Source of the DNA: Sedimentisphaerales bacterium | Lineage (GTDB): Bacteria > Planctomycetota > Phycisphaerae > Sedimentisphaerales > SM23-30 | Reading direction: 5' to 3' (one strand) | NCBI GenBank assembly: GCA_963666285.1 | Contig: OY762713.1 | Length of the DNA stretch: 64,000 nucleotides | Part shown: piece after piece, positions 9,315-58,217 of the stretch | Position numbering within the stretch: the stretch's first letter is position 1 | How the letters are laid out: the number at the start of each line of letters is the position of its first letter | Made by a program: the position numbers and the translations under genes | The notes under the pieces: generated by a model | Databases searched by the model: none | The model's input: the letters and a program-made list of their open reading frames with translations, nothing else | What the model was told of the DNA's origin: nothing

Positions 9315-10508
9315 ATGGCTGTTACACAAGGTGAATCCAATCTCGCGATAGCAACCCGCGAAGCATTGGAGAAGAGTTGGAAAGCCCAACTCGCAATGAA
9401 GAATGGATTATACACAAGGTTGCTGGAACGTACCCAGTTTACTGCTGGTTTGAAATTTGAACAGATTAACCAGATGGACGATTACTACGCCTTGGCGCAG
9501 GAATACGGCCCTAATACCCCGACAGTGGGTGGTCGTAAAGACTTCCTTGCTAAAGCGGGCTGGAATGTAGCGTTTATCAGGGTTCCAATTGAAACCAAAA
9601 TCGATGAAAAGATCAAGAATAAGCCTAAAGGCGATCATCAGCTTATCAATCTGGCAGGTTTACATAGCCGCATGGCTCTGGATGCCCTCAAGAAGAAGCT
9701 TATCGCAAGAACTTACTCTTGTGCCGGTGATGTCGAATGGGATGAAGGCCATACAAATGTTCAGGGCCTTTGTTCGGCACTACTTAGTCCGAGGGCTATC
9801 AGTAAGCATCCTGATAACCCTGCTGTCAGCCGTAATACAGAACATAATTTATTCTATTATGGTGGCCTTGATAGAGGTCTTGACCGCAATAGAATGTGGC
9901 TCAGTGCCGATGATGAGAACATTTTTAGCGAGGTTGTACTTAATAAGACTGTTCTGGACGAATGGATTGACGCTTGTAATGAAAACAGCGAAACATCCAA
10001 CGGCGATCTGATAATCATTGTAGGTTATAAACTGTTCAATGGCCTTAAACGTATCCTGGAAATGTCGCAGATTCAGACTGTAACTGGTTCTGAAAGTGTT
10101 ATAAATCAGGGTTTCGACCGCATGATCTATAACGATGTGGAGATTATCAAAGACCCATATCTGTCACACATGACTAAATGGGGGCTGGATAGCAAGGTCC
10201 GCAGCGATAATTCCATTAAGGATAGCAACGGCAGGGCGCAGGGCTTATGCGGTGATCTAACAGTGAATGGGACAAACGGTGATAACTTCCTGTTTATCCT
10301 TAATCTGAAAACATGGCGTATTCGCTATTGGGGTGATCCGGATGCACAGCAGTCAAGTGAAGGACCGTTTGAAGTGACAGACTTCTTCGACCAGTCTCAA
10401 GTTAAAGGCGGCGTGGAAGAGGATCTCGCACACGTTAAGTTCAGAGGTAATCTGACTTGCGAAAGTCCTGTTAATAACATGATGCGTGCAAATGTATTGT
10501 GTGCATAA
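9315..10508 (+). CDS. Major capsid protein
   Basis: 397 aa, strong RBS, follows scaffold; GFDRMIYNDVEIIKDP...LFILN...GNLTC pattern recalled from podoviral capsids. Confidence 0.75.
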   Translation: MAVTQGESNLAIATREALEKSWKAQLAMKNGLYTRLLERTQFTAGLKFEQINQMDDYYALAQEYGPNTPTVGGRKDFLAKAGWNVAFIRVPIETKIDEKIKNKPKGDHQLINLAGLHSRMALDALKKKLIARTYSCAGDVEWDEGHTNVQGLCSALLSPRAISKHPDNPAVSRNTEHNLFYYGGLDRGLDRNRMWLSADDENIFSEVVLNKTVLDEWIDACNENSETSNGDLIIIVGYKLFNGLKRILEMSQIQTVTGSESVINQGFDRMIYNDVEIIKDPYLSHMTKWGLDSKVRSDNSIKDSNGRAQGLCGDLTVNGTNGDNFLFILNLKTWRIRYWGDPDAQQSSEGPFEVTDFFDQSQVKGGVEEDLAHVKFRGNLTCESPVNNMMRANVLCA

Positions 10509-40893: not shown

Positions 40894-40956
40894 AGCCAAA
40901 TATGTTTTTTTAGGTTTTTTCTTGATATTTGTCGTCAAAGTGTAATAATACTTGGT

Positions 40957-41172
40957 GACAATTTGGTATTGTACCGTTTTAGGACATTCTATCATAAAAT
41001 CGCTAAATTAATTGTACGGAATGTCGCAAAGAACGGCACTCTCAGTTTATCTTCTGTGACAATTCAGGGGTTACTGAGGGTGCTATGCTTGTTGTGTTCC
41101 GTACAGGGTTTTAGCGAGCCTTTGATAGTTCATGACTTCATAGCGCCTTGAGTGACCTCTTTTTTTATGCGC
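40957..41172 (+). ncRNA. Structured RNA / leader element family A, copy 1
   Basis: Four nested helices, 3' tail complementary to the inner helix, U-tract; homologous to 50665-50872 with compensatory changes; TTGATA-N16-AATAAT upstream. Confidence 0.65.
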
Positions 41173-41249
41173 TATGGTTTATATTGTGAGTTAATTTATT
41201 ATTAAACAAACTGGGAAGTTGTATTTCGTAAGAAAGGATATTATTTGAG

Positions 41250-41335
41250 ACACTCAATTTTGGCTAGTGCGGTTTTGTTCATCCCTTCTGAATCCCGACC
41301 ATAACATCATAGAGCAAGATCGTACTGGCTTTTTT
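41250..41335 (+). ncRNA. Large-loop hairpin family B, copy 1 (terminator/attenuator-like)
   Basis: 18-bp stem with G-U pairs (41263-41280/41312-41329), 31-nt loop, U-tract; related copies at 51006 and 56613. Confidence 0.6.
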
Positions 41336-41482
41336 ATAATTTTTTGAAAAAAACCAATTTTTTTTCCAATATAAATTTTTTTTTGCGTATTTATTAATGG
41401 AGGTGTGTCTGGATTTCGGGAAAAGCAAAAAATACATATTGGCGAATACTAATAACCTACCATTTAAAGGAGACCAACAGAA

Positions 41483-44400
41483 ATGAAACTAAGAATCCCT
41501 GTTTGCAGCTTCGTTGTTGCATTGTCGCTACTTTTCAGTCTTCAGACCAAAGCGGATCTGATTATCCAGGCTGAAGGAACTCAACAAGTACCTGAGATAG
41601 TGGAAATTGAAAGCATAAATGATGTATCTTTTACTCTTACATCATCTGATGATGTAAAATTAGATAAAGATTTTGCAGTTATACTATCTTCAGATGAAGG
41701 GACATTTGGCCCGGATTGTGAAAAATCAATTCTTATAACTAACAAAAACATTCACAAATATAATCCAATTACTTTCCATTTCACTGGAACTGAAGGTGTT
41801 GCAATGGTTCATTTATATGCAGCACAGGAAATGGAAGTAACCTACCAAAATGAAACAATAACAGTATCGCCAATGACGGAAATCTACCAGATGGCCGTTT
41901 TTGATATGAGTTTTGACGGTGCTAAAACGATAGACCCTGAAAGAACCTATGAAGCTATTGCATTTGGCATAAATTATGACGGTATGAACTATGTTCCACC
42001 TGTCAAAAAAACTGTTGCCCCCCAAACATCATCCCTAAAGATGGCTTCAACTACATCTTTTAAAAGTAATACTGATGCTACCACACTGCCAACAAAGGAG
42101 CGTTTTGACCCTAAAAAACACAGACGTTATAATGGCGATTGGGCCAGAATGTCAAGCTATAATCCACAAGATAATAGTTTTACTAAAGGCAGTAGAATAA
42201 ATATACAATCCACTTCATTCAATGCCAGTGCAAACAATAACACAGAATTGGTTGCTACTAAAAAAACATCAGTTGCAACTATGGCAGCAAGCAAAGCAGT
42301 TTCACCTGATATTGACACAAGTAATACTAATACAATCATGGCATTAGCTACAGATATGTCTGTAAGTTCGCCAGAAGCAATCGACCCTAATGATTGTATA
42401 GTAATCAATGACAGGTATCTTTCTGAATCGACTACATGGAATCCAAACGAAACATATCTAATTAATGATCCACCGTTTATTATTTCAGATGCAAAAACTC
42501 TCAATATCCCTTCTGGAACTAATATTTATTATAAAGTGAATACTGAAGCTTGGGTGGATGTTTTCGTGGTTGAAAATGGCGGTATTCTAAGGACCGATTA
42601 TCTAGTACCAGATAATACAAGATCAGATGAGCCAGTGACTATATTGCCATTTGAAGATGGTCAAAATAGAGTTGCAATATATCTCAAACAATCAGCTTCC
42701 CCTGATTGCCAGATCAGAAATACGGTAGTTAAGGACTGTATATATGGTATTTATAACCGTACAGAATTGACAAGATACATCTCTGACAACTATATTTATA
42801 ACTGTAACTATGGTATCACCTCAGTTGGTAATAATACGATATTTAACAACCTATGTTATCAGTGCGGTGGAGCATCTAATGATAATGACGGTTGGGCTAT
42901 TGCTATGTTCCCATATTCAAATGATTATAATTTTGCCCTTTCTGATTTAGACATAGATTCAATTGAATACGGGATGTTTAATAACACCGTATATGATACC
43001 GCCGGTTTTGCTTTTTGTATCAGTGGTATAAGCAGCGACGATCAGACCGCCGGAATACCAGCACCTCAAGTACATCTTGAAAAGAATATTACTTCACATA
43101 CCGAAGACATTTCATATTATTTTGAAGGCAGCGGCACTTCCAGTGGTATTTACTGGGCTGGTTTTTCTAACGATGAATCAAATGCTACAAACTCAACTCT
43201 AGGCTTCTATTGTGCTGTTACAGACAATACTGAACTGATTACAGGTGAATATGGTGACTGGAATTTATATTTAGACCCTCAATCTGATTTTATACATCAG
43301 GTTAAGTTAAATGACTATCTAAATGTTATCCATTCAGTAAAAACAAATTTTGAAAACATCTATTCTTCTTCTGTAACCTTCGACGACACTCCTGTAAGAG
43401 ATGGAGCGATAGGCAAGCATAACTTTACTACCTTTACTGGAACAGTGAAAGCACTGCAATGTGATATAGCTCCTGAAACTCCTGATGGCGTTGTTAATCA
43501 ACTAGACCTTGACTTGTTAAACAGCGTATTTTCTCAAACAGTACCAGTTCACACTGAAATAGACTATGAATTGCTAGACCCAAATGCTGTCTGTAACTTC
43601 AACGACAGTGACTATATTATCGATTTACTTGATTTTTCATTATTGGCAGCGCGTTGGGAAACTTCTACCAACGGCATAACCGACCCGAACGAATTACGAT
43701 ATGATATGGATAATGACCAGTGGGTTGGTATAAGTGATCTTTCTCAGTTTGCTTCATATTTCTGCTATGAAATACCAACCATTTCCTATATAGAAGATGG
43801 TGCTGATCCTAATGTAATTAAAGCTGATGTCAACGGTGACTATGTTGTAGATGATCTGGACCGTAACTTACTACTCGCTGAAATGGAAAGCGTTCAGATA
43901 GTTCCTGATGTTCCGACAATTGTTACAAGCTTCAGAGGTATATCTGAAGAGCCAAACTATCCTGATGAGCTATTTAGTTGGAATAATATTAAAGGTGATG
44001 TTGAAGTAGCAATAGAACCTATTGAGGATATTGATAAAGTTGAAGTATTTATCCACAGAAACCGTATTGGCTTGATTTTCTTTGACGGTGTAGATGATTT
44101 TAATAAGTTCCAAATATATTCACAGGACTATAAGCCTGGCACTTATGACGTTGTATTCAATCTGCACCATCCAGACGGTGCTATTTCAGTTGTAAGGCAG
44201 CCTATTACCTTTACAAATAACAATTTACATTCTGTAAATATTCCAACTCTATTAGATGAAGATATATATAGAATACAATTCAGTAATGGTACTGAAAACA
44301 CTCGATTAACCGTTACTAATACCAAAACAGATCAAGTACTGCATAATGCCGTCTATACAGGTAATGAAGTTGAAGTAGTATTTGATCCTAATGTGCCTGG

Positions 44401-45391
44401 TTTTGATAATGTGGAGTTCTCACTTGAAGCTCTGCCTGCTGTAACCACAAGCAGCACAATTGTCCCATTATCAGTAAGTCAAGGTGAATACAAAGACCCG
44501 GACACAACCAAAAATACCAAAAAGAAAAAGAAAAAACGCAAAAAAAAGAAAGGTGAAGCTGATGATGATGAATTTAAGTTGTTGATCTCAATACCTGATG
44601 AAAGTATGGAAAGATTTGTTGATGACATTATCGAATTTATTATCGATGCCTGCTATTCAGATGAAGACCACGAGGAAGAAAACTGCGTTGTTCCTTATGT
44701 AATATATGATGGTGTTGAATTTAACTGGAATGATTTTAGTAAACGTATTGAAAAAAATAGCCATTTCAAATACTGGATTAATTTCTCACATGGGAACTAT
44801 GATGAAGAACGTGGGTTGACTTATACTGTAATATGGAAGAATATACCCGGAACTGATAAATGTTATCCAACAAGGCTATATTCTTTCTCATACCAAACCA
44901 ATTCCATTATAGAAACATTGGAAGCACAAAAATATTGCTATATGTCTGACTTGAATATTAGGAATGAGGATAAACTTAAATTTGTTTACAATTTTGCCTG
45001 TAAATCAGGTAAAACCCTATTCCAGTATGGAAATTATTATAATGATTTTGCTGATGCGTGTGGCATGTATTCAACTTATTACAATCATTATCAGGCATAT
45101 ATAGGCTTCCATGACAATTTTGTTGCATACGATGGGATTGGAGATTATATTGAACTGTTGACAAGAGCTGAAGAATTTCATAAAAAGTTCTTTAAAAACC
45201 TTAAACTGAGGGTGCATCTTGAATCTGTAATCGGCCTGACAATGGGTTCTTGCGGTAAAGCTGTAATAGAGCTTATTCAAGGTTATGATGCAGAATGGGA
45301 TGTTCCATATAGCAAAACAAAAGACCCTATTTATCAGGATAGTTTAAGAATATACCCTTGGACTGATTTGAATAGAATACATTTTCAATAA
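41483..45391 (+). CDS. Large secreted protein: beta-helix, dockerin/EF-hand-like repeats, C-terminal putative clan CD (caspase/gingipain-fold) peptidase
   Basis: Signal peptide; IDLLDFSLLAARW and ADVNGDYVVD repeats; WINFSHG and FVYNFACKSG His/Cys motifs. Confidence 0.65.
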   Translation: MKLRIPVCSFVVALSLLFSLQTKADLIIQAEGTQQVPEIVEIESINDVSFTLTSSDDVKLDKDFAVILSSDEGTFGPDCEKSILITNKNIHKYNPITFHFTGTEGVAMVHLYAAQEMEVTYQNETITVSPMTEIYQMAVFDMSFDGAKTIDPERTYEAIAFGINYDGMNYVPPVKKTVAPQTSSLKMASTTSFKSNTDATTLPTKERFDPKKHRRYNGDWARMSSYNPQDNSFTKGSRINIQSTSFNASANNNTELVATKKTSVATMAASKAVSPDIDTSNTNTIMALATDMSVSSPEAIDPNDCIVINDRYLSESTTWNPNETYLINDPPFIISDAKTLNIPSGTNIYYKVNTEAWVDVFVVENGGILRTDYLVPDNTRSDEPVTILPFEDGQNRVAIYLKQSASPDCQIRNTVVKDCIYGIYNRTELTRYISDNYIYNCNYGITSVGNNTIFNNLCYQCGGASNDNDGWAIAMFPYSNDYNFALSDLDIDSIEYGMFNNTVYDTAGFAFCISGISSDDQTAGIPAPQVHLEKNITSHTEDISYYFEGSGTSSGIYWAGFSNDESNATNSTLGFYCAVTDNTELITGEYGDWNLYLDPQSDFIHQVKLNDYLNVIHSVKTNFENIYSSSVTFDDTPVRDGAIGKHNFTTFTGTVKALQCDIAPETPDGVVNQLDLDLLNSVFSQTVPVHTEIDYELLDPNAVCNFNDSDYIIDLLDFSLLAARWETSTNGITDPNELRYDMDNDQWVGISDLSQFASYFCYEIPTISYIEDGADPNVIKADVNGDYVVDDLDRNLLLAEMESVQIVPDVPTIVTSFRGISEEPNYPDELFSWNNIKGDVEVAIEPIEDIDKVEVFIHRNRIGLIFFDGVDDFNKFQIYSQDYKPGTYDVVFNLHHPDGAISVVRQPITFTNNNLHSVNIPTLLDEDIYRIQFSNGTENTRLTVTNTKTDQVLHNAVYTGNEVEVVFDPNVPGFDNVEFSLEALPAVTTSSTIVPLSVSQGEYKDPDTTKNTKKKKKKRKKKKGEADDDEFKLLISIPDESMERFVDDIIEFIIDACYSDEDHEEENCVVPYVIYDGVEFNWNDFSKRIEKNSHFKYWINFSHGNYDEERGLTYTVIWKNIPGTDKCYPTRLYSFSYQTNSIIETLEAQKYCYMSDLNIRNEDKLKFVYNFACKSGKTLFQYGNYYNDFADACGMYSTYYNHYQAYIGFHDNFVAYDGIGDYIELLTRAEEFHKKFFKNLKLRVHLESVIGLTMGSCGKAVIELIQGYDAEWDVPYSKTKDPIYQDSLRIYPWTDLNRIHFQ

Positions 45392-45419
45392 CATATATCT
45401 TGTTTTGGAGTAATAAGTT

Positions 45420-46226
45420 ATGAAAAGCATTTATGTTTTAATTATTGCTGTTACACTAGCTCTGTTGGTTGGTTTCGGCTTTGGTTATAGCTCTCGCAGT
45501 ACAGAGAGTAAAGAAACCAACCAATACCTAAGTGAACTAGAAAATATGCAAAAAAAGGCAGAATTTTCAGGGCAATTTGAGGCTAAAAAAGTTGATTTTG
45601 AACAAGTTACATTACCAGAATTAGAAAATGGTGTAATTTACTATTCAGAAAAAAACGAACTCTATCCTCTATATATAGATTATTGGATTGGTTGCGGATG
45701 GGAAAATAATATTACAGGTGAAGTACATGACCTGATTAAGATTTTTCCTGTATCAGCCACACTGTATGTAAAAGATAAAACATTACAGTCTTCTACATAT
45801 CAGCCTTTGTATTCCAAAATAAGAATATTTCAGGATATGGATTTAATCAAATCTATTGTTAATAAACTTGAAAGCCCTGGTATTTATTATAACCCAGCGG
45901 ATTATGAAAGTTGGAAACAAGATAGGAAAAACCTTATCAGAGAGGATAAATTGTCCAAAGATAAGAAAAACATCTTGAATCAATTAGCTGATCGTGAGAA
46001 TCTACTCATTCTTGACTACGGTTATAAAAGAGTAGCTGTATCATATATTACTCAAGAAGTTTATGACAAAGCTTCTGAAAAAACAGATATTGACGTTATT
46101 TCTTATAAAGGCCGATCAAATGAATTATATGATTTGCTAAATAATAGTAAATATGGAAAGTCCCCTAGAGTTTTATGGACAAGAAAGGCTCCAGAAGGTA
46201 TGCCAAAGTACCATTTTAATGAATAA
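45420..46226 (+). CDS. Membrane-anchored/exported hypothetical protein, paralog 1
   Basis: N-terminal TM helix; similar throughout to 46329-47111 (YSKxxIFQDM, SPGxYYxP, LDYGY, VSYITQExYDKAS). Confidence 0.75.
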   Translation: MKSIYVLIIAVTLALLVGFGFGYSSRSTESKETNQYLSELENMQKKAEFSGQFEAKKVDFEQVTLPELENGVIYYSEKNELYPLYIDYWIGCGWENNITGEVHDLIKIFPVSATLYVKDKTLQSSTYQPLYSKIRIFQDMDLIKSIVNKLESPGIYYNPADYESWKQDRKNLIREDKLSKDKKNILNQLADRENLLILDYGYKRVAVSYITQEVYDKASEKTDIDVISYKGRSNELYDLLNNSKYGKSPRVLWTRKAPEGMPKYHFNE

Positions 46227-46255
46227 TAATGTCATTATTCTAAAATTGTAATTTA

Positions 46256-46302
46256 TCCCGATTCTGATTTAATTGTTAAATGAATTAGAATCGGGATTTT
46301 TT
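46256..46302 (+). terminator. Intrinsic terminator
   Basis: ATCCCGATTCT...AGAATCGGGAT followed by T-run. Confidence 0.6.
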
Positions 46303-46328
46303 AATAAGCTACTTTCTTCGGATTATTT

Positions 46329-47111
46329 ATGAAAAACAAAAATATAATAATAACTATTACAATAGCAATATTGATTAGTTTTGGCTTGGGTTATCTCTCT
46401 CGCAATACCGAGAGTGAAGAAACTAGACAATTCTGTAAAGAATTGAAAGAAATGGACAATTATGCGGAATTTCCCGGCCAGTTTGAAATCAAAACATGTA
46501 GCGTTGGCCACCTAGAACTCCAAGAATTAGAAAGAGATACAATAGTTTACTTTGAAAGAGATAAATTTTTCCCTTTACCAGTTTATTATTGGGTTGGAGG
46601 TGGTTGGCAAATAGTAACTAATAATGGTGCTTGTGGGCTTACTCATGTTTACCCTATATCTATTACTATATTCAAAAAAGATGAAGTATCACAGTCACCA
46701 AAATTTGAAGAAACGTATTCTAAAGTAAAAATATTTCAGGATATGAATCAAATCAAGGAGATTGTGAAAATTCTTGATAGCCCTGGTATGTATTATGATC
46801 CAGAGGAATATGAGAGTTGGGAAAAAGAAAGAAAAGACCTTATTAGAAGTTCTGATCTTCCAGAAAACGACTCAAACATATTATCTCAACTATCAAAACA
46901 CAATAACCTGATGGTACTTGATTATGGTTATAGACAAATAGCAGTATCATATATCACTCAAGAAGCTTATGATAAAGCCTCTGGAAAAACAGGAATAGAC
47001 TTTTTATCTTATAGTGGAATATCTAATGAGTTATACGACTTGTTAAACAAATACGGCGGAAGCCCTAATATATTGTGGGATAGGGTATATAAACCTGAAC
47101 CACGCCGTTAA
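46329..47111 (+). CDS. Membrane-anchored/exported hypothetical protein, paralog 2
   Basis: Paralog of 45420-46226. Confidence 0.75.
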   Translation: MKNKNIIITITIAILISFGLGYLSRNTESEETRQFCKELKEMDNYAEFPGQFEIKTCSVGHLELQELERDTIVYFERDKFFPLPVYYWVGGGWQIVTNNGACGLTHVYPISITIFKKDEVSQSPKFEETYSKVKIFQDMNQIKEIVKILDSPGMYYDPEEYESWEKERKDLIRSSDLPENDSNILSQLSKHNNLMVLDYGYRQIAVSYITQEAYDKASGKTGIDFLSYSGISNELYDLLNKYGGSPNILWDRVYKPEPRR

Positions 47112-47123
47112 GCTTATTTACTC

Positions 47124-47159
47124 AACTAATACCACCGCAACCGGTGGTATTAGTTTTTT
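47124..47159 (+). terminator. Intrinsic terminator between convergent genes
   Basis: AACTAATACCACCG-CAAC-CGGTGGTATTAGTT plus T-run. Confidence 0.75.
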
Positions 47160-47176
47160 ATATGAATAAATAATAC

Positions 47177-47204
47177 ATGTCTCATAAGGACGATTATGTT
47201 TCAT
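47177..47204 (+). other. dif/Xer-like recombination site 1
   Basis: ATGTCTCATAA-GGACGA-TTATGTTTCAT (11-6-11; compare E. coli dif GGTGCGCATAA-TGTATA-TTATGTTAAAT). Confidence 0.65.
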
Positions 47205-47219
47205 TGACTGAACTATAAC

Positions 47220-47561
47220 CTATTTTTGATTTCTTGAACGACTTTTTTTATCTGGAATAATAACACTACTCCAGTTTTTATCTGAATATTGCTCTAATAA
47301 ATCATTATCAAAGATTTTTATGGTTAGATGGTAATATTCTTTGAAATCTAATAATAGCCAGGTAGAAGCAATTTGCTCAGTGAAACATATAGAAGCATCT
47401 CTATTTTCTTTTGAACCAGAAATGATTTTTACTAATTTTATATACTTGTCGTATCTATCATTTTTAAGCTGTTTATTTCGACTGTCAACCCACTTAATAA
47501 AAGCAAAAATACCAGCAACAATAGGTAGCAAATAACTTAGGTTTTTCAAAATATCTTGCAT
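47220..47561 (-). CDS. Small membrane protein, sole gene between two dif-like sites
   Basis: N-terminal TM helix LSYLLPIVAGIFAFIKW; very AT-rich. Confidence 0.6.
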   Translation of the reverse strand: MQDILKNLSYLLPIVAGIFAFIKWVDSRNKQLKNDRYDKYIKLVKIISGSKENRDASICFTEQIASTWLLLDFKEYYHLTIKIFDNDLLEQYSDKNWSSVIIPDKKSRSRNQK

Positions 47562-47603
47562 AGCTTGTCTTTTCCGTTTTGTGTTGAATTCTAGGCTAAC
47601 GTC

Positions 47604-47631
47604 CAGTCTTATAAGAGCGCTTATGTTTCAT
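47604..47631 (+). other. dif/Xer-like recombination site 2
   Basis: CAGTCTTATAA-GAGCGC-TTATGTTTCAT; contains the stop codon of 47621-48088. Confidence 0.65.
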
Positions 47632-48088
47632 TGCGTATAAAAATTTTTACACTTAGCCAATCTCCATCTGTGACACCTAAATGAGTTCGTAATTTAATAT
47701 CAGCGTATAATTCAACAGTTCGTTTGAGTGGTTTTTTAGCTGCTATACGTAATATAGCTCCATAACTTGCGTTTTGACCTTGTACGGCACATTTGAAATA
47801 ATTATAACCACCCCGTATAAAATGGATTTCGTAGTCAGGATATTCATCTGGTATAGATATAGTATTGGGATCTTCATACCAAAATGCAGGGATTGTTTTT
47901 AATTGTTCTACAATTTCCGGATTTACTGCCAAATTTAAAGTACCTAACTCAAGCTTATCCCATCCACCTATTTCCATTAGTTTATTTTGTCGGTTAGGAT
48001 TTACTTTAATGATCTCTGACTCACTAATCGCTAATAACCCAGTTTTACCCCTACTTCTTGGATTTACCTGACCAGAAAAAAGCATCAT
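47621..48088 (-). CDS. CTP-dependent riboflavin kinase-like (DUF120) domain protein
   Basis: FSGQV N-terminus, GTLNL motif, VELYADIKLRTHLGVTDGDWLSVKI C-terminus. Confidence 0.65.
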   Translation of the reverse strand: MMLFSGQVNPRSRGKTGLLAISESEIIKVNPNRQNKLMEIGGWDKLELGTLNLAVNPEIVEQLKTIPAFWYEDPNTISIPDEYPDYEIHFIRGGYNYFKCAVQGQNASYGAILRIAAKKPLKRTVELYADIKLRTHLGVTDGDWLSVKIFIRNET

Positions 48089-48105
48089 TCACCTCCATCA
48101 TTCAA

Positions 48106-48975
48106 TCAATCATCTTTAGAAAATGTATGATTATGGTAGCTACAATATTCATGATACTCAATTCTAAATGTATTATTCCCACAATTAGGACATTGCTCTT
48201 CTCGATCACTTCCATCTGCCAGAACAGATGAAATATGTCCACTATCATCAATGTCATGTATTTCACCATCTTCGCAGTAAAAAATACAATGCCAGCATTT
48301 TTCACAATAAGCATCAAACATTGCCCTTGCGCCACAGATGCACTCTCCGTAAGTATCATCATCTGGGATTTCAATAACTTTTTCTATCCTTTTAGCCCAA
48401 AACACTCCACCAATTGGCACTTCTGGATACTTCTCTTTTATCATATCTCTACAAACAGTAAAATGACTTCCAGATGTTATTAGATCATCGATTATTACCA
48501 CAGTAGAAGTTAGATGTGTAAATCCATTCCACTTCAAACCTTGTCTAATGCTCTGATAATCCCGTGGACCACCTAAATGGGAAGGTTCTTTATTAATAGT
48601 TCTAACTATTGGTTTTTGAATATTTATATTTGGACAAGTTTTTTTTAATAAGTCCAACGTCTGTTCAAACCTATCATCATATTCCGCTGCATCGTGAGCG
48701 TAAGAGGGAGGAATAAATATTACTGTGTTATCCGTAAAATCAAGGTAATTTAGCTCTTGAGCGAATTTTTTTATTGCTTCTCCCTTATAATACCATTCTT
48801 GTTTGCATCTTTTCTCATGATCCTTCTTGAAGTTATGAATTAAACTGTTAGTTTCTGAATCTTGATATGAACCGCCAGCTATATATTCACGCGCATACCA
48901 ACAGTCGTCATTAACATTCAAACATGACGGAAACCCATGCTCTGTTCGCTCAATTTTTTTCCAGTTTAGTGTCAT
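48106..48975 (-). CDS. Phosphoribosyltransferase-like (ComFC/ShosT-like) protein with Cys-rich C-terminal extension
   Basis: SLIHNFKK, FIPPS, VVIIDDLITSGSHF PRPP loop; CICG, CEKC, CPNC at C-terminus. Confidence 0.8.
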   Translation of the reverse strand: MTLNWKKIERTEHGFPSCLNVNDDCWYAREYIAGGSYQDSETNSLIHNFKKDHEKRCKQEWYYKGEAIKKFAQELNYLDFTDNTVIFIPPSYAHDAAEYDDRFEQTLDLLKKTCPNINIQKPIVRTINKEPSHLGGPRDYQSIRQGLKWNGFTHLTSTVVIIDDLITSGSHFTVCRDMIKEKYPEVPIGGVFWAKRIEKVIEIPDDDTYGECICGARAMFDAYCEKCWHCIFYCEDGEIHDIDDSGHISSVLADGSDREEQCPNCGNNTFRIEYHEYCSYHNHTFSKDD

Positions 48976-49885
48976 TTGAACCCAATTCAGAAAGAATATC
49001 ATTTAAATCTTTAACTCTAAAAGCACCTTTTTCTTCATACATTTTAGGCCAGGTTATATTTCGATTATCAAAACAGGAATTAAGTATAAATAACTTTCTT
49101 CCTTGTCGCAGACACTCTCTGGCTTGAGTCAATGTTCCACTCTTCTCTGAAGCTTCAACAATAACAGTAGCTTCAGATATTGCAGACATAGTTGCATTTC
49201 GTGCCGGAAAATAGTTTCTTTTAGACTGAAACGGCTGATGTTCATAATAATAAAATGGAACCTGGCTAATCAGCAAATGATGCTTAGCTATTTCATTTTG
49301 AAGTTTGATATTTTCTTTTGGATAATATTGATTTATAGGTGTACCAATAACTCCAATTGTCTTGCCTTTATATTGAATTGCTGCTTCCAATGCAGCAGTA
49401 TCAACACCTAAAGCTAAACCAGAAACTATCGTAAAACCATTATCAACTAATCCGCACGCTAATTTAGCTGCTCTTCTTTTCCCTTCTTCTGAACAACTCC
49501 TGGCCCCAACAATTGAGATACAGCGACTTTCAAGTAATCCAATATCACCCTTATAATAAAAAAGTGGTATTGGGTTTGAGGCATCTTTAAGCCTTTCTGG
49601 ATATTGAAATGATCCTTTTACGCATACAGAAAAATCATCTTGATTATCTTCAAATTGTTTCTTAAAGAATTCATCTACTCTTTCCCAATAGTTTGAAGTT
49701 TCACCCTCAAAGAATGTTCTTCCGTGATTTTCAAGATGAAAGAACACTCTTGAAGGCAGAGATTCGTTATATTCTCGAAATAGTTCTGCTATCTTTTTAT
49801 ATGATGCTTTCTCCATATCACATAATGCTTCGTAGTAACACATCTCTTGATAAGGAGATATTGCATTTGAAAATTGCAATTCCAT
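48950..49885 (-). CDS. dprA: DprA/Smf-family protein (ShosA-like)
   Basis: YPERL...FYYKGD, SIVGAR, IVSGLALGVDTAA, FPARNATMSAIS, VEASEKSGTLTQA. Confidence 0.9.
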   Translation of the reverse strand: MELQFSNAISPYQEMCYYEALCDMEKASYKKIAELFREYNESLPSRVFFHLENHGRTFFEGETSNYWERVDEFFKKQFEDNQDDFSVCVKGSFQYPERLKDASNPIPLFYYKGDIGLLESRCISIVGARSCSEEGKRRAAKLACGLVDNGFTIVSGLALGVDTAALEAAIQYKGKTIGVIGTPINQYYPKENIKLQNEIAKHHLLISQVPFYYYEHQPFQSKRNYFPARNATMSAISEATVIVEASEKSGTLTQARECLRQGRKLFILNSCFDNRNITWPKMYEEKGAFRVKDLNDILSELGSNDTKLEKN

Positions 49886-50074
49886 TCTGTTTCAACCTTT
49901 TCTTATTGCCTTAAAAGTCTTATATAAATTCTACTCAATCTATATAATTCTATATAATAACCGGGTAGGTAGTCAACAACCATATATATCCATAGGATTA
50001 TCGACATTTCTGTCAAATTTCATGCAATTATCACATAAGTGATTTAATTACAATACGTTAATCAAAGATTAGCA

Positions 50075-50359
50075 CTAAAATATAGGAAAATCTCTCCATA
50101 ATCTCTTTGTCACCTCTTTATAGTCAAGTTCAAGAACTATCAAATATCCAGAGTAGTTATCCATATTTTTAGGTGTATTACCATCCACTTTTTCATACAT
50201 TAGCGTTCCATGCTCTGTAGTTACCATTTTGGATATGGTTTCTGCTTTTTCACAAAATTGCTGGTAAACCCAGTTAATTGCCTGTTTTGAGCTTTTAAAG
50301 CCATCTTTTTGCTCTGTTACTAATCCATTTTCTAATACTTGTACGATGTAATTATCCAT
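50075..50359 (-). CDS. Hypothetical protein
   Basis: 94-aa ORF with AAGGAG RBS. Confidence 0.55.
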   Translation of the reverse strand: MDNYIVQVLENGLVTEQKDGFKSSKQAINWVYQQFCEKAETISKMVTTEHGTLMYEKVDGNTPKNMDNYSGYLIVLELDYKEVTKRLWRDFPIF

Positions 50360-50524
50360 TATTATCTCCTTTATTTACAGGAAGTTAATTTAATAATTAT
50401 ATATTCGATCTTCTGTACCAAAAATCCTTTATTATTTTTTTAAAAAACAATACCAATAACGCCCTATAACAAAACTTATGCTCAAACCTTTTCATAAGTC
50501 ATTATAAAACAGGGTATTTACGTT

Positions 50525-50552
50525 AGGTCCGATAATGGACATTATGTTACAT
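50525..50552 (+). other. dif/Xer-like recombination site 3 (closest to canonical dif)
   Basis: AGGTCCGATAA-TGGACA-TTATGTTACAT; right arm differs from E. coli XerD arm at one base; intergenic. Confidence 0.75.
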
Positions 50553-50664
50553 TAGGCCAAATTCACCGGCAGGGCGGTCGGAAAAAACATCAAATATTGA
50601 ACTCAAATCATAATTTTAATAAAAACTATTGAAAATACAACAACTGTTAGTCATAATAGATTTT

Positions 50665-50872
50665 GACAATTTGAGACCGTTTTGGACGTATCCAGTGAAA
50701 TACCGCTAATTTTTTATTGAATAGATGCGTTGGTAACGGCACTCTCAGGAACCTTCACAAACATTATGCAGAGGTGACTGAGGGTGCTATGCTATGTGTT
50801 CTATTCTGGCTTTAGCGGGCCTTCACTGGGCATATAGGCGTAGCGCCCTCTGGAACCTCTGTTTTTTTGCGC
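50665..50872 (+). ncRNA. Structured RNA / leader element family A, copy 2
   Basis: Same nested helices as 40957-41172; TTGAAA-N17-CATAAT promoter 7 nt before the shared GACAATTTG. Confidence 0.65.
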
Positions 50873-51568: not shown

Positions 51569-54500
51569 ATGAAATTGGTACGATTATTGGTTCTTTTATT
51601 TACTATGGTATCGTGTGTGTGGGCAGGCGAACTCCCAGTTCAAATTGCTTCGACAACACCAATAGTAGCAACAGCGAATAGCTCATCAAACACAAACATA
51701 CCGTCTAATGCAAAAATATTAGTGTATGATTGCGGCGATAGCTCTATTCAAAGAGCACTCGGTATATTAGGTTTGTCATACGATGTAATAGAAGCAAATC
51801 AATCAGTTACAGAATATGACTTAGCTAGCCATGACATATTGATAGTTGGCTGGGACAGTAGCGATCCAAGTGATACAAACGGTCTTTCACCTTCTGTTAT
51901 AGAAAAAGGAATTACTGGCCGCATTATTTTAACTGGTCATGATACAGATTGGCATACTGCAAATGACGAAAACGCAAATGACCAACAAGCAGCTCAAACT
52001 TTTCTGACACAATGTATAGAATATATTTTGGACGGTGCAGGAACCGGATTGTTAGCTCATGGAGAAATGCATGATGGGTTTGAATGGCTCCCGGAAGAAT
52101 GGGGAATCACTCCACAATGTGAAATTGCAGAAGAACATGTTGAATCATTCACAACTGAAGGTATTAACAGTGGTATTTTTGAAGGCCTCGACACAGACGA
52201 TATGTCAAATTGGGGCCAATCTTTCCACAATTACTTTGAAAGTTGGGGGCGTGGATTTGAACCTTTTGAACTTGGACGTAGTAATGGTACAGATGTGATA
52301 ACAATTGGCACGCCATTTAATGCTTACGGTTTCAGATTTACTAAAGAAGACGATGTTGATGATGGTAGTTGTGTAACCCCTATTGACGGTGGTGACACCG
52401 ATATTGTATATACTATCTGCTGGAAGAACATAACAGGCCAGACCTTGACAGATGTGCGAATTGTGGACACATTACCTGCTGGTGTTGATTACCCTGCCGG
52501 ATGGGATAGTGTAGATGTGGTAGATGGAGAGATTGTTGTAACTCCTGGCGACCCACTCTACTCGAAATCAGAACATACATATACATGGGAAATAGGAACA
52601 GTCGATCCAGTTGAAGAAGACCCGAACAGTATTGATGAAGACTGGTCTTGTGTAACACTTGAAGTTGTCGTAAATGAAAATGCAATTCCTGGAATGATGC
52701 TGCATAATGAAGCTGTAATAATAGGAACATATTGCGTTGAGACACCTGATCCGAATGACCCAAATACAATGATAACTACCTGCTATGAGAAAGAATTTGC
52801 TATTGCAACAGAAGATACACCTGTATGTTGTTGGGACGATTCAAGCGTGATTTATGTTTCAGAAAATGCTACAGGGGCAAATACGGGATTGAACTGGACT
52901 GACGCATATAACACCGAATACGGACTGAAAATGGCTCTTGACCGGGCTATAGACTCAACATGTGGTGGCCCATTCACTATTTATGTAGCACAAGGAACAT
53001 ATCTGCCGGGAACAGATGTTTCTGAATATTTTGATTTGCCGGATGATATAGAAGTTTATGGCGGTTTCCCAACTAAAGGCTGTGACTTTGCCGATAGAAA
53101 TCCTAAGATGTATGAATCAATATTAAGTGGAAACATAAGCGCATATGACTCATCATTCACGGTAGTCGAAATGGGCCTAGACAGTACGCTTGATGGTGTA
53201 ACAATTTCAGACGGATATGATTACAATGTTCATGGCTATCAATTTACTGTTAAAAACTGTATTATTGAAAATGCAGTGAATTATGGTATTTATGCAGAAG
53301 ATGGTAATGCTACAATTAAATCTTGTATGATTAGAAATAATGGTGCAGACGGAGTTTACCATGAAAGTATCGCGGGTAACTTAGATGTGTCCAACTCATG
53401 GGTTATGAGAAACAATAGGCACGGTATCGAATGTGTTTACTCTACTCCAAAAGTTGTCAGTTCAATTGTAAGTGAAAGCGATCTATCTAATGAAGGTCGT
53501 GCAGGTATATATATTAAAAACCCTGCCTCAACTCCTATTATACACAATGTCACTATCGCAAATAACAGGTCTCTCGGCCTGCATTTTGAAGATCTGGCGG
53601 TAATAGAAGATCCGAATGACCCAAATAACTTTACTATGGACTACCCAAATTTGGATAGTTGCATTATTTTCTACAATAATAAGGATGAAAATGAATCTTA
53701 CGGCAGTCAGCTAAGCGGAGTAACTGTGAATAGTGTTGCTTCATATTGTTGTATTCAGGGCTGTGATGCAGGAGTAAATAATAACATCAGTGCTGTTCCT
53801 GATTTTGCTTATGAAGTTAACTCTGCGGGTGAACCTGACCCGGAAAATTATCACATTTCTGCGGCTTCAATTTGCAAGAATGCTGGAAATCCAAACCTTG
53901 TCTATACAGACCAGACAGATTATGATAATGAAAGCCGTATTGCAGATGATGGCGTGAGAATTGTTGATATTGGAGCTGATGAAGTATATTCGTGCAGTGG
54001 AGATTACACCGAAGAAGATATTTCCAATCCATTAGATACTAATGCTGATGGTGTGATTAATATGATAGAATTTCAGCCGATAGCTAGTAGTTGGCTGAGC
54101 CTTGACCCTAATGACCCTAGATGGGACAGTGATCCAAACTGGGCCGATCCTGACGACACTCTTAACTGGGATGGAAAGGCGAATTTGGATGACACTGGTG
54201 ATAGTCTGCATATTATTGATCTGGCTGACCTTGAGTTATTCTGTGAAAACTGGCTCTGGAAAGCGTGCTGGTATGACGCTGCTAATTCGGTAGAAACCAC
54301 AACCGCATCTACAGAATCAATGACACTGCTTTCAACAAATACGACAGGAATAGCAAGCTTTGCGAGAACAACTTCAACACTAATGCTGGCTGAAGATACG
54401 ACAGAGGAAGAGCGTAATTTATACGATACCCTGTCGAATGCTGAACTTGCTCAAGTTGTTATAGATTTCCGATATTTACAGGAAAATGTACTGGAAATGC

Positions 54501-54601
54501 TGGAGGAATGCCCAGTTGACAGTGAAGATGAGCAAAATTTACTGGATTTGCTGGTATTTTTCGATGATGAACTAGTCAGAATTAAAGAATCTTTGCAATA
54601 A
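51569..54601 (+). CDS. Large secreted/surface protein: DUF11-like domain, right-handed beta-helix, dockerin-like C-terminus
   Basis: Signal peptide; IVYTICWKN...IVDTLPAGV; IYVAQGTYLP; VDIGADEV; DTNADGVINMIEF and IIDLADLELFCENWL; DPNDPN motifs. Confidence 0.75.
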   Translation: MKLVRLLVLLFTMVSCVWAGELPVQIASTTPIVATANSSSNTNIPSNAKILVYDCGDSSIQRALGILGLSYDVIEANQSVTEYDLASHDILIVGWDSSDPSDTNGLSPSVIEKGITGRIILTGHDTDWHTANDENANDQQAAQTFLTQCIEYILDGAGTGLLAHGEMHDGFEWLPEEWGITPQCEIAEEHVESFTTEGINSGIFEGLDTDDMSNWGQSFHNYFESWGRGFEPFELGRSNGTDVITIGTPFNAYGFRFTKEDDVDDGSCVTPIDGGDTDIVYTICWKNITGQTLTDVRIVDTLPAGVDYPAGWDSVDVVDGEIVVTPGDPLYSKSEHTYTWEIGTVDPVEEDPNSIDEDWSCVTLEVVVNENAIPGMMLHNEAVIIGTYCVETPDPNDPNTMITTCYEKEFAIATEDTPVCCWDDSSVIYVSENATGANTGLNWTDAYNTEYGLKMALDRAIDSTCGGPFTIYVAQGTYLPGTDVSEYFDLPDDIEVYGGFPTKGCDFADRNPKMYESILSGNISAYDSSFTVVEMGLDSTLDGVTISDGYDYNVHGYQFTVKNCIIENAVNYGIYAEDGNATIKSCMIRNNGADGVYHESIAGNLDVSNSWVMRNNRHGIECVYSTPKVVSSIVSESDLSNEGRAGIYIKNPASTPIIHNVTIANNRSLGLHFEDLAVIEDPNDPNNFTMDYPNLDSCIIFYNNKDENESYGSQLSGVTVNSVASYCCIQGCDAGVNNNISAVPDFAYEVNSAGEPDPENYHISAASICKNAGNPNLVYTDQTDYDNESRIADDGVRIVDIGADEVYSCSGDYTEEDISNPLDTNADGVINMIEFQPIASSWLSLDPNDPRWDSDPNWADPDDTLNWDGKANLDDTGDSLHIIDLADLELFCENWLWKACWYDAANSVETTTASTESMTLLSTNTTGIASFARTTSTLMLAEDTTEEERNLYDTLSNAELAQVVIDFRYLQENVLEMLEECPVDSEDEQNLLDLLVFFDDELVRIKESLQ

Positions 54602-54622
54602 ATTATGCAATAACCATTGAAA

Positions 54623-54664
54623 CTGCCTGCCGTTATTTGATATAATGACGGCAGGTAAGTTTTT
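54623..54664 (+). terminator. Intrinsic terminator-like hairpin
   Basis: CTGCCTGCCGTTAT...ATGACGGCAGGTA followed by T-run. Confidence 0.55.
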
Positions 54665-54691
54665 ATTTCATAAAGGTTACAGGAGAGAAAT

Positions 54692-55321
54692 ATGAAAAAT
54701 ATTATGATGTTATTACTGTTGGTCTGTGGTTCACAATGCTTTTCAGCTATTACTGATCCCAGTAGCGTTGCAACTGACGGCTTCTTGAATAAGGGTGAAT
54801 ATGGTGGGCATGTCAAAGTAACAGAAGATAGCGTTTTAACTGTTAATGGCGGCGGGGCCAGTGATATTGATCTTTTTGACTCAGCCTCTTTAACCGTTAA
54901 ATCTACTTCCGAACCTTATGTTGATTTTGAAAGTGGAATATCTTGGATAGTCCCTAGTGACAATAGTAATGTAACTGTTTCTGGCGGTGTTATTAATTAT
55001 ATTTATGTCCAAAAAAATGCTTCAGCATGGATAGATGGTGGCCAGGTAAACTATATTAGAAGTATCCAAAAACCTGATCTTGGAAAAACTATTACTATTG
55101 ACTGTGAAAAAGATACCTGGTCATGGATTGGTGAAGAAGATAATTACACCGGCATAACAGGTACTTGGCATAATGGTGATGATTTTACAATTACATTTCT
55201 AAACGATACAATTCAAAACAAATTCCCAGATACATGGACACACGTTCGAGTTATACCAGAGCCAGCATCAATGATACTGCTTGGACTTGGTGGTCTCTTC
55301 CTGAAGAAAAGAAGAATATAA
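54692..55321 (+). CDS. PEP-CTERM sorting-domain protein 1
   Basis: Signal peptide; IPEPASMILLGLGGLFLKKRR. Confidence 0.9.
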   Translation: MKNIMMLLLLVCGSQCFSAITDPSSVATDGFLNKGEYGGHVKVTEDSVLTVNGGGASDIDLFDSASLTVKSTSEPYVDFESGISWIVPSDNSNVTVSGGVINYIYVQKNASAWIDGGQVNYIRSIQKPDLGKTITIDCEKDTWSWIGEEDNYTGITGTWHNGDDFTITFLNDTIQNKFPDTWTHVRVIPEPASMILLGLGGLFLKKRRI

Positions 55322-55349
55322 ATATTTTCATATTTTACAGGAGAGAAAT

Positions 55350-55979
55350 ATGAAAAATATTATGATGTTATTACTGTTGATCTGTGGTTCACAATGCTTT
55401 TCAGCTATTACCGATCCCAGTAGTGTTGCAACTGACGGCTTCTTGAATAAGGGTGAATATGGGGGACATGTCAAAGTAACAGAAGACAGCGTTTTAACTG
55501 TTAATGGCGGCGGGGCAAGTGATATTGATCTTTTTGACTCTTCCTCTTTAACAGTTCTATCAACTTCAGAACCTTATGTTGACTTTGAAAGTGGAATATC
55601 TTGGATCGTTCCTAATGATTATAGTTCCGTTACAGTTTCTGGTGGTGTCGTTAATTACATTTATGTTGGCGAAAATGCTACAGTTTGGCTCGATGGCGGA
55701 CAGATAAACCTAATTAGAAGCCTTCAAAAACCCAGTCTTGGAAAAACTATTACCATCGACTGTAAAAAAGATAGCTGGTCATGGATTGGAGAGGAAGATA
55801 ATTACACCGGCATAACAGGTACTTGGCATAATGGTGAAGATTTTACAATAACATTTTTAAACGATACAATTTTATATGCTTTTCCAGACACATGGACACA
55901 CGTTCAAGTCATACCAGAACCGGCATCAATGCTGCTTCTTGGTCTTGGTGGCATGTTCCTGAGGAAAAGAAAAGTTTAA
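55350..55979 (+). CDS. PEP-CTERM sorting-domain protein 2 (recent duplicate of protein 1)
   Basis: Same length, near-identical N-terminal half; IPEPASMLLLGLGGMFLRKRK. Confidence 0.9.
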   Translation: MKNIMMLLLLICGSQCFSAITDPSSVATDGFLNKGEYGGHVKVTEDSVLTVNGGGASDIDLFDSSSLTVLSTSEPYVDFESGISWIVPNDYSSVTVSGGVVNYIYVGENATVWLDGGQINLIRSLQKPSLGKTITIDCKKDSWSWIGEEDNYTGITGTWHNGEDFTITFLNDTILYAFPDTWTHVQVIPEPASMLLLGLGGMFLRKRKV

Positions 55980-56006
55980 CTCATATATATTTGAAAAGGA
56001 GAATTT

Positions 56007-56567
56007 ATGAAAAAACTGATACTAATACTATGCTTGTGTTCGTCACTATGGGCCGGAAGCTTTGACTATGTTATTAATGAAGGATATTACAGCGACCCAA
56101 TATTGCTTGAAAATCAATCCCTTCAAATAACTGGAGGTGAAATTGCACGAGTTAATACTAGAAACAATAGCTTAACAGAAATGACAGGTGGACAAATAGA
56201 TAGTATCAATTTTAATCCTGGCAACAATGCTTTTAATATGTCTGACGGTTATGTAAAAAATCTTATTATTAACGGTTCTTGTTTAGCAACGCTAGAAGGC
56301 GGAACAATAGATAAGATTGAATTGATAAATATGACTAATGTTTCAATAACATTCATTTGCGACATTGACAGTGTATATAAAGAATATAACGAATATGGAA
56401 TACTAACAAATGTTTCAGGCAACTGGCTTGACGGAAGTGAATTTAATACACAGTTATCATTTTTTAACGATGAAAGTCTTATTCATTTTGTACCAGAACC
56501 AGCATCAATGCTGCTTCTTGGGCTTGGTGGTATGTTACTGAAGAAAAGAAAATTGACTAGACTATAA
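56007..56567 (+). CDS. PEP-CTERM sorting-domain protein 3
   Basis: Signal peptide; VPEPASMLLLGLGGMLLKKRK. Confidence 0.9.
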   Translation: MKKLILILCLCSSLWAGSFDYVINEGYYSDPILLENQSLQITGGEIARVNTRNNSLTEMTGGQIDSINFNPGNNAFNMSDGYVKNLIINGSCLATLEGGTIDKIELINMTNVSITFICDIDSVYKEYNEYGILTNVSGNWLDGSEFNTQLSFFNDESLIHFVPEPASMLLLGLGGMLLKKRKLTRL

Positions 56568-56612
56568 TCTTCGTATTATGTATAATAGCATAATAGAATA
56601 TCAATAATCGAA

Positions 56613-56700
56613 ACACTCAATTTTGGCTAGTGTGGTTTTGCTTTTTCCCTTCTGAATCCCGACCATAACATCATAAGGGCAAGATCACGCTAGCTTTTTT
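56613..56700 (+). ncRNA. Large-loop hairpin family B, copy 3
   Basis: Close direct repeat of 41250-41335: identical loop core TCCCTTCTGAATCCCGACCATAACATCATA, compensated stem. Confidence 0.6.
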
Positions 56701-56753
56701 ATTTACCTCTTATTATTATATCGACAGATAAACCTGCTAATTTAATATAACTG

Positions 56754-57152: not shown

Positions 57153-58217
57153 CTACTGCCTCCACTTCTGATCCAGTTTAGACTGGATTTCACCTACACT
57201 GGAAGGCTGACAATAATATTTAGCAGTTGTGGTAATGGAAGCATGGCCGGCAAGGTCTCTAACCTGGTCCATTGTGCAGCCGCTTCTAACCCAGTGAGTT
57301 ATACAAGTTCTGCGCAGGGTATGGGTTGTATATAGATTCTTCCCGTACCTGTTTACCAGCCACGCCTTTTCGCATATACGGGCAAATCCCCTGGAAGCAT
57401 TGTTAATATTATAGCTGCAATGTTTATTCGGCTTTAAGCTGACAGAATCGATTATACGCCCTGCCCTGCCCTGTTCTACCCTTCTATTAAGATAGTCCAG
57501 CAATTGCGGTGAGATGGGAACCTGCCGCCCTTTACCACTTTTAAGCTTATAATCAATCGAGTTTGATACTGTCAGAACTCTGTAATTAAAATCTATATTC
57601 CAGGTATTCAGCGTTAGTATTTCACCAATACGCAAACCGGAATGATAACCGATTGCTATTATCAATTCCCAATCGAATGTTGGTGCTGTATCTAATAGTA
57701 ACTGATAATCTCCGGACGAAAGAATTATGATAGACTTTTCATCTGGTCGGCATCGAAGCGATTTACTAACCGGATTATAATCAATTACATTTCTTTCAAT
57801 TGCCCGATTGAAGGCTGCTTTGATAATTGCCAGCTCGGTATTGAACGTACCTGGCTTACAACCTTCATTTTGCCTTTTTAAGCGATAATCCAGCAGAAGT
57901 TCATTAGTTATATCTTTCAGATAGTTTGGCCCATACAGACGCTTTATATGCTCATATACACGCCTTATACCATCAATTGTACTTTGCCTGACTTTGCTGC
58001 TATGTATTTCAAGGTCTGTCTCACACCAACGCTGCCAGGTTACATTATCCAGATCGATGCAAAAGTTCTGACGCTCTCTTTCCGCTTCTTCTTCTGTAAT
58101 ACCCTTCTGCAAACTGCGACATCGATTAATAGGCTTATCTCTACCTTGAATATAATCTTCCCATCGTAGATAGAATCGACCTTTAGAACGATGGAGCTGC
58201 GGTACTCGCTTATCCAT
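57153..58217 (-). CDS. int: Tyrosine recombinase / phage integrase
   Basis: SGLRIGE, LKSGK, HTLRR, LAGHASITTTAKYY catalytic set; SAM-like core and short N-terminal arm-type region. Confidence 0.9.
   Translation of the reverse strand: MDKRVPQLHRSKGRFYLRWEDYIQGRDKPINRCRSLQKGITEEEAERERQNFCIDLDNVTWQRWCETDLEIHSSKVRQSTIDGIRRVYEHIKRLYGPNYLKDITNELLLDYRLKRQNEGCKPGTFNTELAIIKAAFNRAIERNVIDYNPVSKSLRCRPDEKSIIILSSGDYQLLLDTAPTFDWELIIAIGYHSGLRIGEILTLNTWNIDFNYRVLTVSNSIDYKLKSGKGRQVPISPQLLDYLNRRVEQGRAGRIIDSVSLKPNKHCSYNINNASRGFARICEKAWLVNRYGKNLYTTHTLRRTCITHWVRSGCTMDQVRDLAGHASITTTAKYYCQPSSVGEIQSKLDQKWRQ

Follow-up and report, generated by a model that had tools for sequence, protein, structure and literature searches.

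What are three recombination sites of host type doing among the accessory genes of a phage? The question is raised by a 64,000-nt stretch of contig OY762713.1 from a Sedimentisphaerales bacterium (hereafter the window, in whose coordinates positions are given), which carries three 28-bp sites of the dif type used by the XerC and XerD recombinases (XerCD). The original prediction, made from the sequence alone, read them as an integron-like, Xer-driven cassette array that collects defence genes. Our analysis points to direct-repeat dif modules, in which the site at 50525 would be resident to the element and the sites at 47177 and 47604 would be borders of modules swapped by host XerCD between co-resident replicons; we put the probability of this reading at about 0.55. 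It starts from what can be observed directly: the identity of the sites with the host motif, their extrachromosomal context, the conserved flanks of 50525, the position of sites at gene junctions and the differing spacers.

Host-type dif sites on a phage-plasmid

As originally described, the three sites lie in one orientation and differ in their 6-bp centres, the spacers having 1–3 of 6 bases in common. We name the arms by analogy, the TTATGTT arm being the one that binds XerD in published tables of plasmid dif (pdif) sites. Allowing up to 3 mismatches, we found three matches in the window versus 0.32 expected from shuffled sequence; the pattern used was derived from these same three sites, which makes a scan of the rest of the genome and of relatives the better test. 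The whole genome (6.35 Mb) holds six strict matches, three in the window and one each on the chromosome (C1) and on two sister replicons (C2 and C4), with zero more at 1 mismatch. The motif is thus rare, and the possibility that it is equally common genome-wide, raised as a check on the original prediction, is ruled out.

Among 60 relatives, 51 carried the motif at up to 1 mismatch (49 once and 2 twice), and a reversed control matched once. A looser pattern matched in 215 of 401 genomes of the class. Because the motif is single-copy in most relatives and its chromosomal copy (C1:2,622,085) lies 75 kb from the cumulative GC-skew maximum, it is very likely the dif site of this lineage, as judged from these sequence comparisons. 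The 11-6-11 sites of the window match this single, terminus-located site of the host, scoring 33.3 bits (47177) and 31.5 bits (47604) against 34.0 bits for the chromosomal copy. XerC (347.7 bits versus an NCBIfam cut-off of 335.15), XerD (328.6 bits, just under the cut-off of 329.6) and an FtsK gamma domain (95.5 bits) are all encoded on C1, with the two recombinase genes near 5,447,000 and 5,850,000. The assignment of the sites to the dif/Xer type therefore holds. The further suggestion that 50525 might itself be the chromosomal dif, to be checked by GC skew, is ruled out by the location of the host copy; the 20 kb around that copy contain one site only, and C1 carries none of the phage core sequence. 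Elsewhere on C1, far from the terminus, lies a 24-bit dif-like site with a perfect XerD arm (207,766, minus strand). One other genome of the class (G350) has 10 matches, at least 7 of them with an identical spacer on different contigs, and these may mark an element carrying or targeting a dif-like site.

The contig that contains the window (C3, 65,644 bp) has the genes of a phage with its own replication (terminase, portal, capsid, replication). It shares synteny with C2 and C4, and none of the core genes has a match on C1. Gene order is circularly permuted among the three and a giant gene runs across the contig ends of C2; they are therefore circular extrachromosomal prophages. By its sequence, the window is assigned to a phage-plasmid, not to the chromosome. 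In a search of 251 genomes of the order, the replication protein was found on only four replicons, namely C2, C3, C4 and the 37.9-kb plasmid of a congener (G001:C2), and these related, site-bearing replicons range from 38 to 67 kb. The terminase had no close relative in 400 genomes of the class, and its best match among cultured phages was at 33%.

The resident site, the proposed module borders and their genes

Each of the four related replicons carries one extended site with conserved surroundings on both sides. In the window this is 50525, which from its sequence context is likely the element's own XerCD/FtsK dimer-resolution site. Its extension includes a motif resembling the FtsK-orienting polar sequences (KOPS): of 215 distinct high-scoring sites with sufficient flank, only 4 have GCAGGG followed by C or G no farther than 42 bp from the XerD arm. 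These are precisely the sites of the four related replicons, where the motif is always at +16 and points outward. The remaining KOPS-like motifs converge on the resident site. Across the three phage-plasmids, GCAGGG points towards rather than away from it by 119 to 12 (rank 3 of 3,285 hexamers), a split for which the origins were hand-chosen near replication genes and to which transcription strand bias contributes. On C1, GCAGGGCG is 94% polarised towards dif.

A second, weak site lies on the XerC side of 50525. The original prediction had noted this ATAA-N6-TTATG match as a weaker site, and it is indeed present. Because its position (−63 to −66 bp) recurs in three of the four related replicons (C2, G001:C2 and C3, with only a 2.3-bit trace in C4), it belongs to 50525 and is not a separate cassette border; on this conservation we regard it as an accessory element of the resident site. 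Scores at its level arise about once per 100 kb of strand on C1. The intervening GTAAATACCCTGTTTT (50487-50524) is identical in C3 and G001:C2, and in G001 (L065, about 9960-10000) the −10 box of a near-consensus promoter overlaps the weak site's degenerate XerD arm. Sequence resembling the weak site also occurs at loose ends of other contigs in two sequencing runs (X2 and X3). Contigs of these runs, including one of 27.6 kb, match 50495-50535 through the flank on the XerC side and the arm itself and then diverge, with another spacer and a degenerate XerD arm; from this shared flank they are taken as further members of the replicon family in the samples.

Since both flanks of 50525 are conserved in the sister replicons, nothing has been inserted into it by a single crossover, and integron-like stacking at this position is not supported. 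G001:C2 bears the same extended site yet has no PF00589 recombinase, a finding that favours host enzymes over the phage integrase encoded at 57153-58217.

The two extra sites have neither a KOPS-like motif nor a weak second site alongside. They do lie at gene boundaries, as predicted and as in the arrays on other phages described below. The sites bound recombinase-free units of 427 bp and 2,921 bp with the gene contents originally listed, all on the minus strand, and the TAA stop of the riboflavin-kinase-like gene falls inside the XerD arm of 47604, confirming the earlier observation of a stop codon within a site. We propose that a module reads from XerD arm to XerC arm, such that a gene would begin just past an XerC arm, with its stop inside the following XerD arm or shortly ahead of it. 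This layout is seen in the 427-bp unit, its only gene starting 43 bp after one XerC arm and stopping 15 bp before the next XerD arm.

The product of this gene is a 113-aa protein whose family yielded no Pfam match in 13 members, a low-confidence helical model and no fold match. Its last residues diverge from the family, and a family-like tail sequence sits in another frame. A homolog on C1 (142 aa) ends in a perfect XerD arm without an XerC arm, the only one of 5,689 C1 open reading frames (ORFs; ≥100 aa) to stop in this way; 3 of 3 congeners lack it behind clpB. The third homolog, which is broken, is on G001:C2, some 790 bp from the site on its XerC side, and is read in the same direction. 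Homologs in such other Xer-linked contexts are only 35–43% identical, and the identical module was found nowhere else. A TTGTCC common after the degenerate arms behind the C1 and G001 homologs was dropped as a candidate feature, the G001 gene being cut by an inverted repeat. By eye, three of five distant homologs adjoin sequences that resemble integron-cassette ends.

Table 1 Features of the locus in window coordinates
Feature	Position	Strand	Details
Terminator-like hairpin, strong	47124..47155		14-pair stem, fold z −5.4; minus-strand block meets convergent plus-strand operon
Extra dif-type site	47177-47204	+	ATGTCTCATAA GGACGA TTATGTTTCAT; closes minus-strand block
Helical protein, 113 aa, N-terminal hydrophobic stretch	47220..47561	-	No Pfam family; only gene of 427-bp unit
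Extra dif-type site	47604-47631	+	CAGTCTTATAA GAGCGC TTATGTTTCAT; XerD arm contains kinase-like gene's stop
CTP-dependent riboflavin-kinase-like protein (DUF120), 155 aa	47621..48088	-	Pfam PF01982, 26.2 bits vs cut-off 25; Atlas 0.94
Phosphoribosyltransferase (PRTase), ShosT-like, 298 aa	48106..49002	-	PADLOC PDLC03962, E 5.8e-32; Asp-Asp at 172-173
DprA, ShosA-like, 311 aa	48950..49885	-	PADLOC PDLC03961, E 3.7e-83; Pfam PF02481; PDB 9vzo ShosA, E 1.9e-22
94-aa gene	50075..50359	-	No match in Pfam, PADLOC, NCBIfam, PHROGs
Weak second site	50459..50486	+	Good XerC arm, degenerate XerD arm; 8.2 bits; 66 bp from 50525
Resident dif-type site	50525-50552	+	AGGTCCGATAA TGGACA TTATGTTACAT (XerC arm, spacer, XerD arm)
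KOPS-like motif	50567..50577	+	CGGCAGGGCGG; GCAGGG begins 16 bp past XerD arm, pointing away from site

The 2.9-kb unit had been taken for one cassette. Because DprA is adjacent in 61 of 61 related PRTase loci and the kinase-like gene in 0 of 61 (nor do these loci have the 94-aa or 113-aa gene), the unit is better described from its gene content as a composite block, not one cassette. A site profile run over the same loci, which is lineage-specific and may miss dif sites of other hosts, reached 12 bits in none of the 61 and gave one loose core match, ruling out the DprA-PRTase pair as a regular dif passenger. The pair probably entered the block by another route.

The notion that the array collects defence genes fared no better: one pair in the window matches PADLOC, and of 23 proteins examined at such sites elsewhere, 22 had no PADLOC match, the single protein with a match being a homing endonuclease. 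On its genes alone, the window pair resembles ShosTA, with DprA and PRTase adjacent and the Asp-Asp pair that binds phosphoribosyl pyrophosphate present. The pairing of DprA and PRTase in a P2-like phage is reported to protect against T7 and lambda (PMC9122126). The adjacency, the PADLOC matches to ShosA and ShosT and the location in a prophage accessory region are shared with the ShosTA anti-phage systems as described (PMC9122126, PMC11961720, PMC12961424), from which the window PRTase differs by a Cys-rich tail and by having Asp-Asp at 172-173, not 331-332. Because of this position, the window PRTase probably does not have the extra pyrophosphatase domain, judging from its sequence. The tail (about 85 aa; 48106-48360, minus strand) is unmatched in relatives and is possibly a fusion to the remains of another gene; the PRTase itself had no PDB match.

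Several further features of the replicon were noted around the locus. Host-type secreted and PEP-CTERM operons occupy 41483-47111 and 51569-56567, with chromosomal copies 50–75% identical; in front of each lies a leader of about 220 bp, similar between the two (40945-41172 and 50652-50872). A repeat of about 90 bp (41247-41337 and 56610-56702) brackets the accessory region and is also present on C2, on C4 and, at 7 or more places, on C1. The region 24418-40893 encodes a protein of 5,491 aa in which stretches resembling methyltransferases and helicases can be made out by eye and whose length varies in the sisters (3,717 aa or more on C2 and 4,858 aa on C4).

Arrays in other phages and the case for exchange

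We searched for comparable sites in three pattern scans of viral contigs, which gave 109 loci, and in a partial metagenome scan, which gave 120 loci from 9 of 64 parts. Most loci have a single site. Close same-direction clusters were found in four distinct phages, with 6, 5 (one of them inverted), 2 and 2 sites, and a further one in a phage-like contig (3 sites). With the window included, 19 of the 21 sites in arrays point the same way as the rest of their array. A site was counted as a gene junction when, read from XerD arm to XerC arm, it coincided with the end of a gene of ≥60 aa and a gene of ≥50 aa began within 45 bp. This was the case for 12 of the 21 (11 of 18 without the window), versus 1/63 chromosomal-type sites, 6/77 single viral sites, 1/25 other metagenome sites and, when the opposite strand was read, 1/21 array sites. 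These counts exclude duplicates and any site closer than about 300 bp to the end of its locus, and the array label was hand-assigned; it counts against our reading that the 21 sites come from six elements and are non-independent, leaving six as the true sample size, and that dense phage operons favour junctions. Several array units consist of one gene fitting tightly between two sites. What the arrays carry is unremarkable: a nucleotide phosphatase, a Mom-like protein and small proteins of unknown function.

Other arrangements were seen in the same scans. The viral loci L024-L138 mostly have a single intergenic dif-like site with a private spacer, which suggests, at the level of sequence, that an Xer site is retained by many tailed phages. 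At L146:1030-1151 a gene-free interval of 94 bp separates two full sites, accompanied by several repeats resembling half-sites, and there are inverted pairs of dif-like sites 55–66 bp apart at L176:2750-2843 and L248:244-326. In one metagenome contig (L201 and L202), two sites pointing the same way and separated by about 10 kb both have the spacer GGGAGC. Same-direction sites with an identical spacer are expected for an element integrated at dif.

How might modules move? Only 1 of 29 spacer pairs within arrays shares 5 or more bases, and the spacers of the four replicons of this genome all differ. Xer recombination in Acinetobacter is reported to require identical or near-identical spacers; simple cassette excision was not seen there, and single modules were replaced via cointegrates (bioRxiv 10.1101/2024.04.09.588662, PMC13141974). 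Because the window spacers share only 1–3 of 6 bases, host XerCD would not be expected to excise the units directly. Instead, a crossover with a co-resident plasmid or phage of matching spacer would yield a cointegrate, and a second crossover at another matching spacer would resolve it, swapping the DNA between. By analogy with Acinetobacter, arrays would then be stable against self-excision, with modules exchanged by two spacer-matched crossovers. A broader version, a general cassette system of tailed phages and phage-plasmids running on host XerCD, is a possibility we put forward only tentatively. In it, private spacers of the direct-repeat dif copies would serve as addresses, one-gene modules would end in an XerD arm, co-resident phages would trade them in a natural form of recombinase-mediated cassette exchange, and the extended resident site, with its outward KOPS-like motif and weak second site, would time the reaction.

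Several results weigh against exchange of modules. No partner with a matching spacer was found in the genome, the best match having 4 of 6 bases. Neither an empty site, an excised circle nor a swapped module was seen, and the cassette movement and excised circles originally envisaged thus found no trace as an excision joint or empty site in runs or relatives. In the sequencing check, which covered contigs of three runs (X1–X3) from one study and in which contigs drop rare variants, so that rare excision could go unseen, none of the sites showed a joint. Runs X1 and X2 have the array in one unbranched 10-kb contig; only 54% of the words were present in run X3, owing to patchy cover and not deletion. 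C2, C4 and G001:C2 have variable genes beside their site and no closing site. For the phages with six and five sites, the genes of the cassettes and of their flanks matched only their own records. One phage with two sites has a syntenic relative, identified through its polymerase, but the corresponding slot there contains different genes and lacks a site altogether, rather than showing a single joined one. Finally, 5/5 distant homologs of the 113-aa protein, from other phyla, are without flanking sites of this dif type.

Some of these results would fit passive relics, that is, extra sites brought in with their cargo by ordinary phage mosaicism and no longer exchanging. The missing matching-spacer partner, the composite 2.9-kb block, the C1 homolog that retains the XerD arm only, the broken G001 homolog and altered tail of the window copy, and the syntenic phage pair with sites present or absent wholesale all favor it. 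Yet both extra sites score nearly as well as the chromosomal one, and arrays of up to six intact junction sites recur in unrelated phages, and we consider relics unlikely. Stacking in the manner of integrons or of integrative mobile elements exploiting Xer recombination (IMEXs) would have one-site circles enter by a single XerC strand exchange resolved by replication, with 50459 as the possible entry and a promoter between it and 50525. This would suit the direct repeats with unrelated spacers, the genes read one way and often stopping in an XerD arm, and a weak site that is fixed in position, variable in its spacer and followed by variable genes. Against it, 50525 retains both flanks, closing sites are missing in the sister replicons, no attC-like or CTX-like hairpin is present, the 2.9-kb block is not one unit and promoter-like matches in the region are at chance (22 vs 20.3), all of which make stacking quite improbable.

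A role in binding without recombination, in which XerCD at the extra sites would tune read-through at junctions or act as an XerCD/FtsK sink, draws on the sites of other phages that lie between ordinary early genes, some 3–6 kb apart. Two full arms, a free 6-bp spacer and a fixed orientation would suit recombination and be superfluous for binding, however, and we think this role very improbable. The phage tyrosine recombinase at 57153-58217 is conserved in C2, C3 and C4 and lies 6.6 kb away, and could in principle act on the sites. It is nevertheless a phage integrase with a SAM-like N-terminal domain (62 bits versus XerC/XerD cut-offs near 330), its gene has no counterpart on G001:C2 despite the same extended site, and the motif equals the host's single chromosomal site; this is the explanation we hold to be least credible. 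The array pattern itself is real and recurrent. Of the integron-like, Xer-driven defence cassette array, the host dif-type sites at gene junctions stand, stacking and defence collecting are not supported, and movement, by exchange between replicons as favored here, is a proposal.

Relation to known Xer systems

Integrons combine an IntI integrase, an attI site and attC cassettes, with direct-repeat sites and single short genes read in one direction, the stop lying in the site. Direct repeats, short one-way genes and a stop codon within a site are shared by the window. Here, by contrast, the sites are of the host dif motif, no IntI lies beside the array (the nearest recombinase scores 51 bits versus a TIGR02249 cut-off of 265) and no attC-type hairpin is present (fold z of sites and surroundings between −1.6 and +0.9). 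IMEXs such as the CTX, TLC and VGJ phages use host XerCD to form stacked direct-repeat sites at Vibrio dif; the present element differs in being separate from the chromosomal dif, a lone site with nothing inserted, and in having units without replication genes.

Closest are the dif modules (pdif or Xer recombination sites, xrs) of Acinetobacter, where 11-6-11 sites for host Xer likewise surround recombinase-free accessory genes on a secondary replicon (PMC13141974, bioRxiv 10.1101/2024.04.09.588662, PMC12907356). Also shared are differing spacers and, in our case only as a proposal, exchange by cointegration and resolution at matching spacers; the cargo described there includes toxin-antitoxin pairs. 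In these accounts sites usually alternate in orientation, direct-repeat CD modules being a fused exception on Rep_3/OrfX plasmids, whereas the window sites are all direct, without alternating C/D modules, and 19 of 21 array sites are co-oriented. Further differences are the reading direction of the genes here, XerD arm to XerC arm with the gene end falling within the arm, and the carrier, a tailed phage or phage-plasmid of another lineage. Movement is demonstrated for the Acinetobacter modules and is only proposed here. No description of direct-repeat dif arrays in tailed phages or phage-plasmids was found in titles and abstracts of the open literature, a scope outside which most subscription papers fall.

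The resident site has its own parallel in the FtsK-controlled xrs of large secondary replicons in Enterobacteriaceae, with which it shares a single 28-bp site and converging KOPS, as described in that study (PMC11724359). There, such sites become the rule above 250 kb (PMC11724359), whereas here they occur on replicons of 38–67 kb and are set apart by two additions, a KOPS-like motif fixed at +16 and directed outward and, beyond the XerC arm, a weak Xer-like site.

Dif modules have so far been described as a feature of Acinetobacter plasmids. If the proposed exchange of single genes in tailed phages and phage-plasmids is true, host XerCD would make phages mosaic in a site-specific way without any recombinase of their own, and the partners between which genes can pass would be predictable from the spacers. 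For its part, the extended resident site offers a small, testable case of FtsK-controlled Xer use by a replicon of 38–67 kb in a group with little previous work on Xer.

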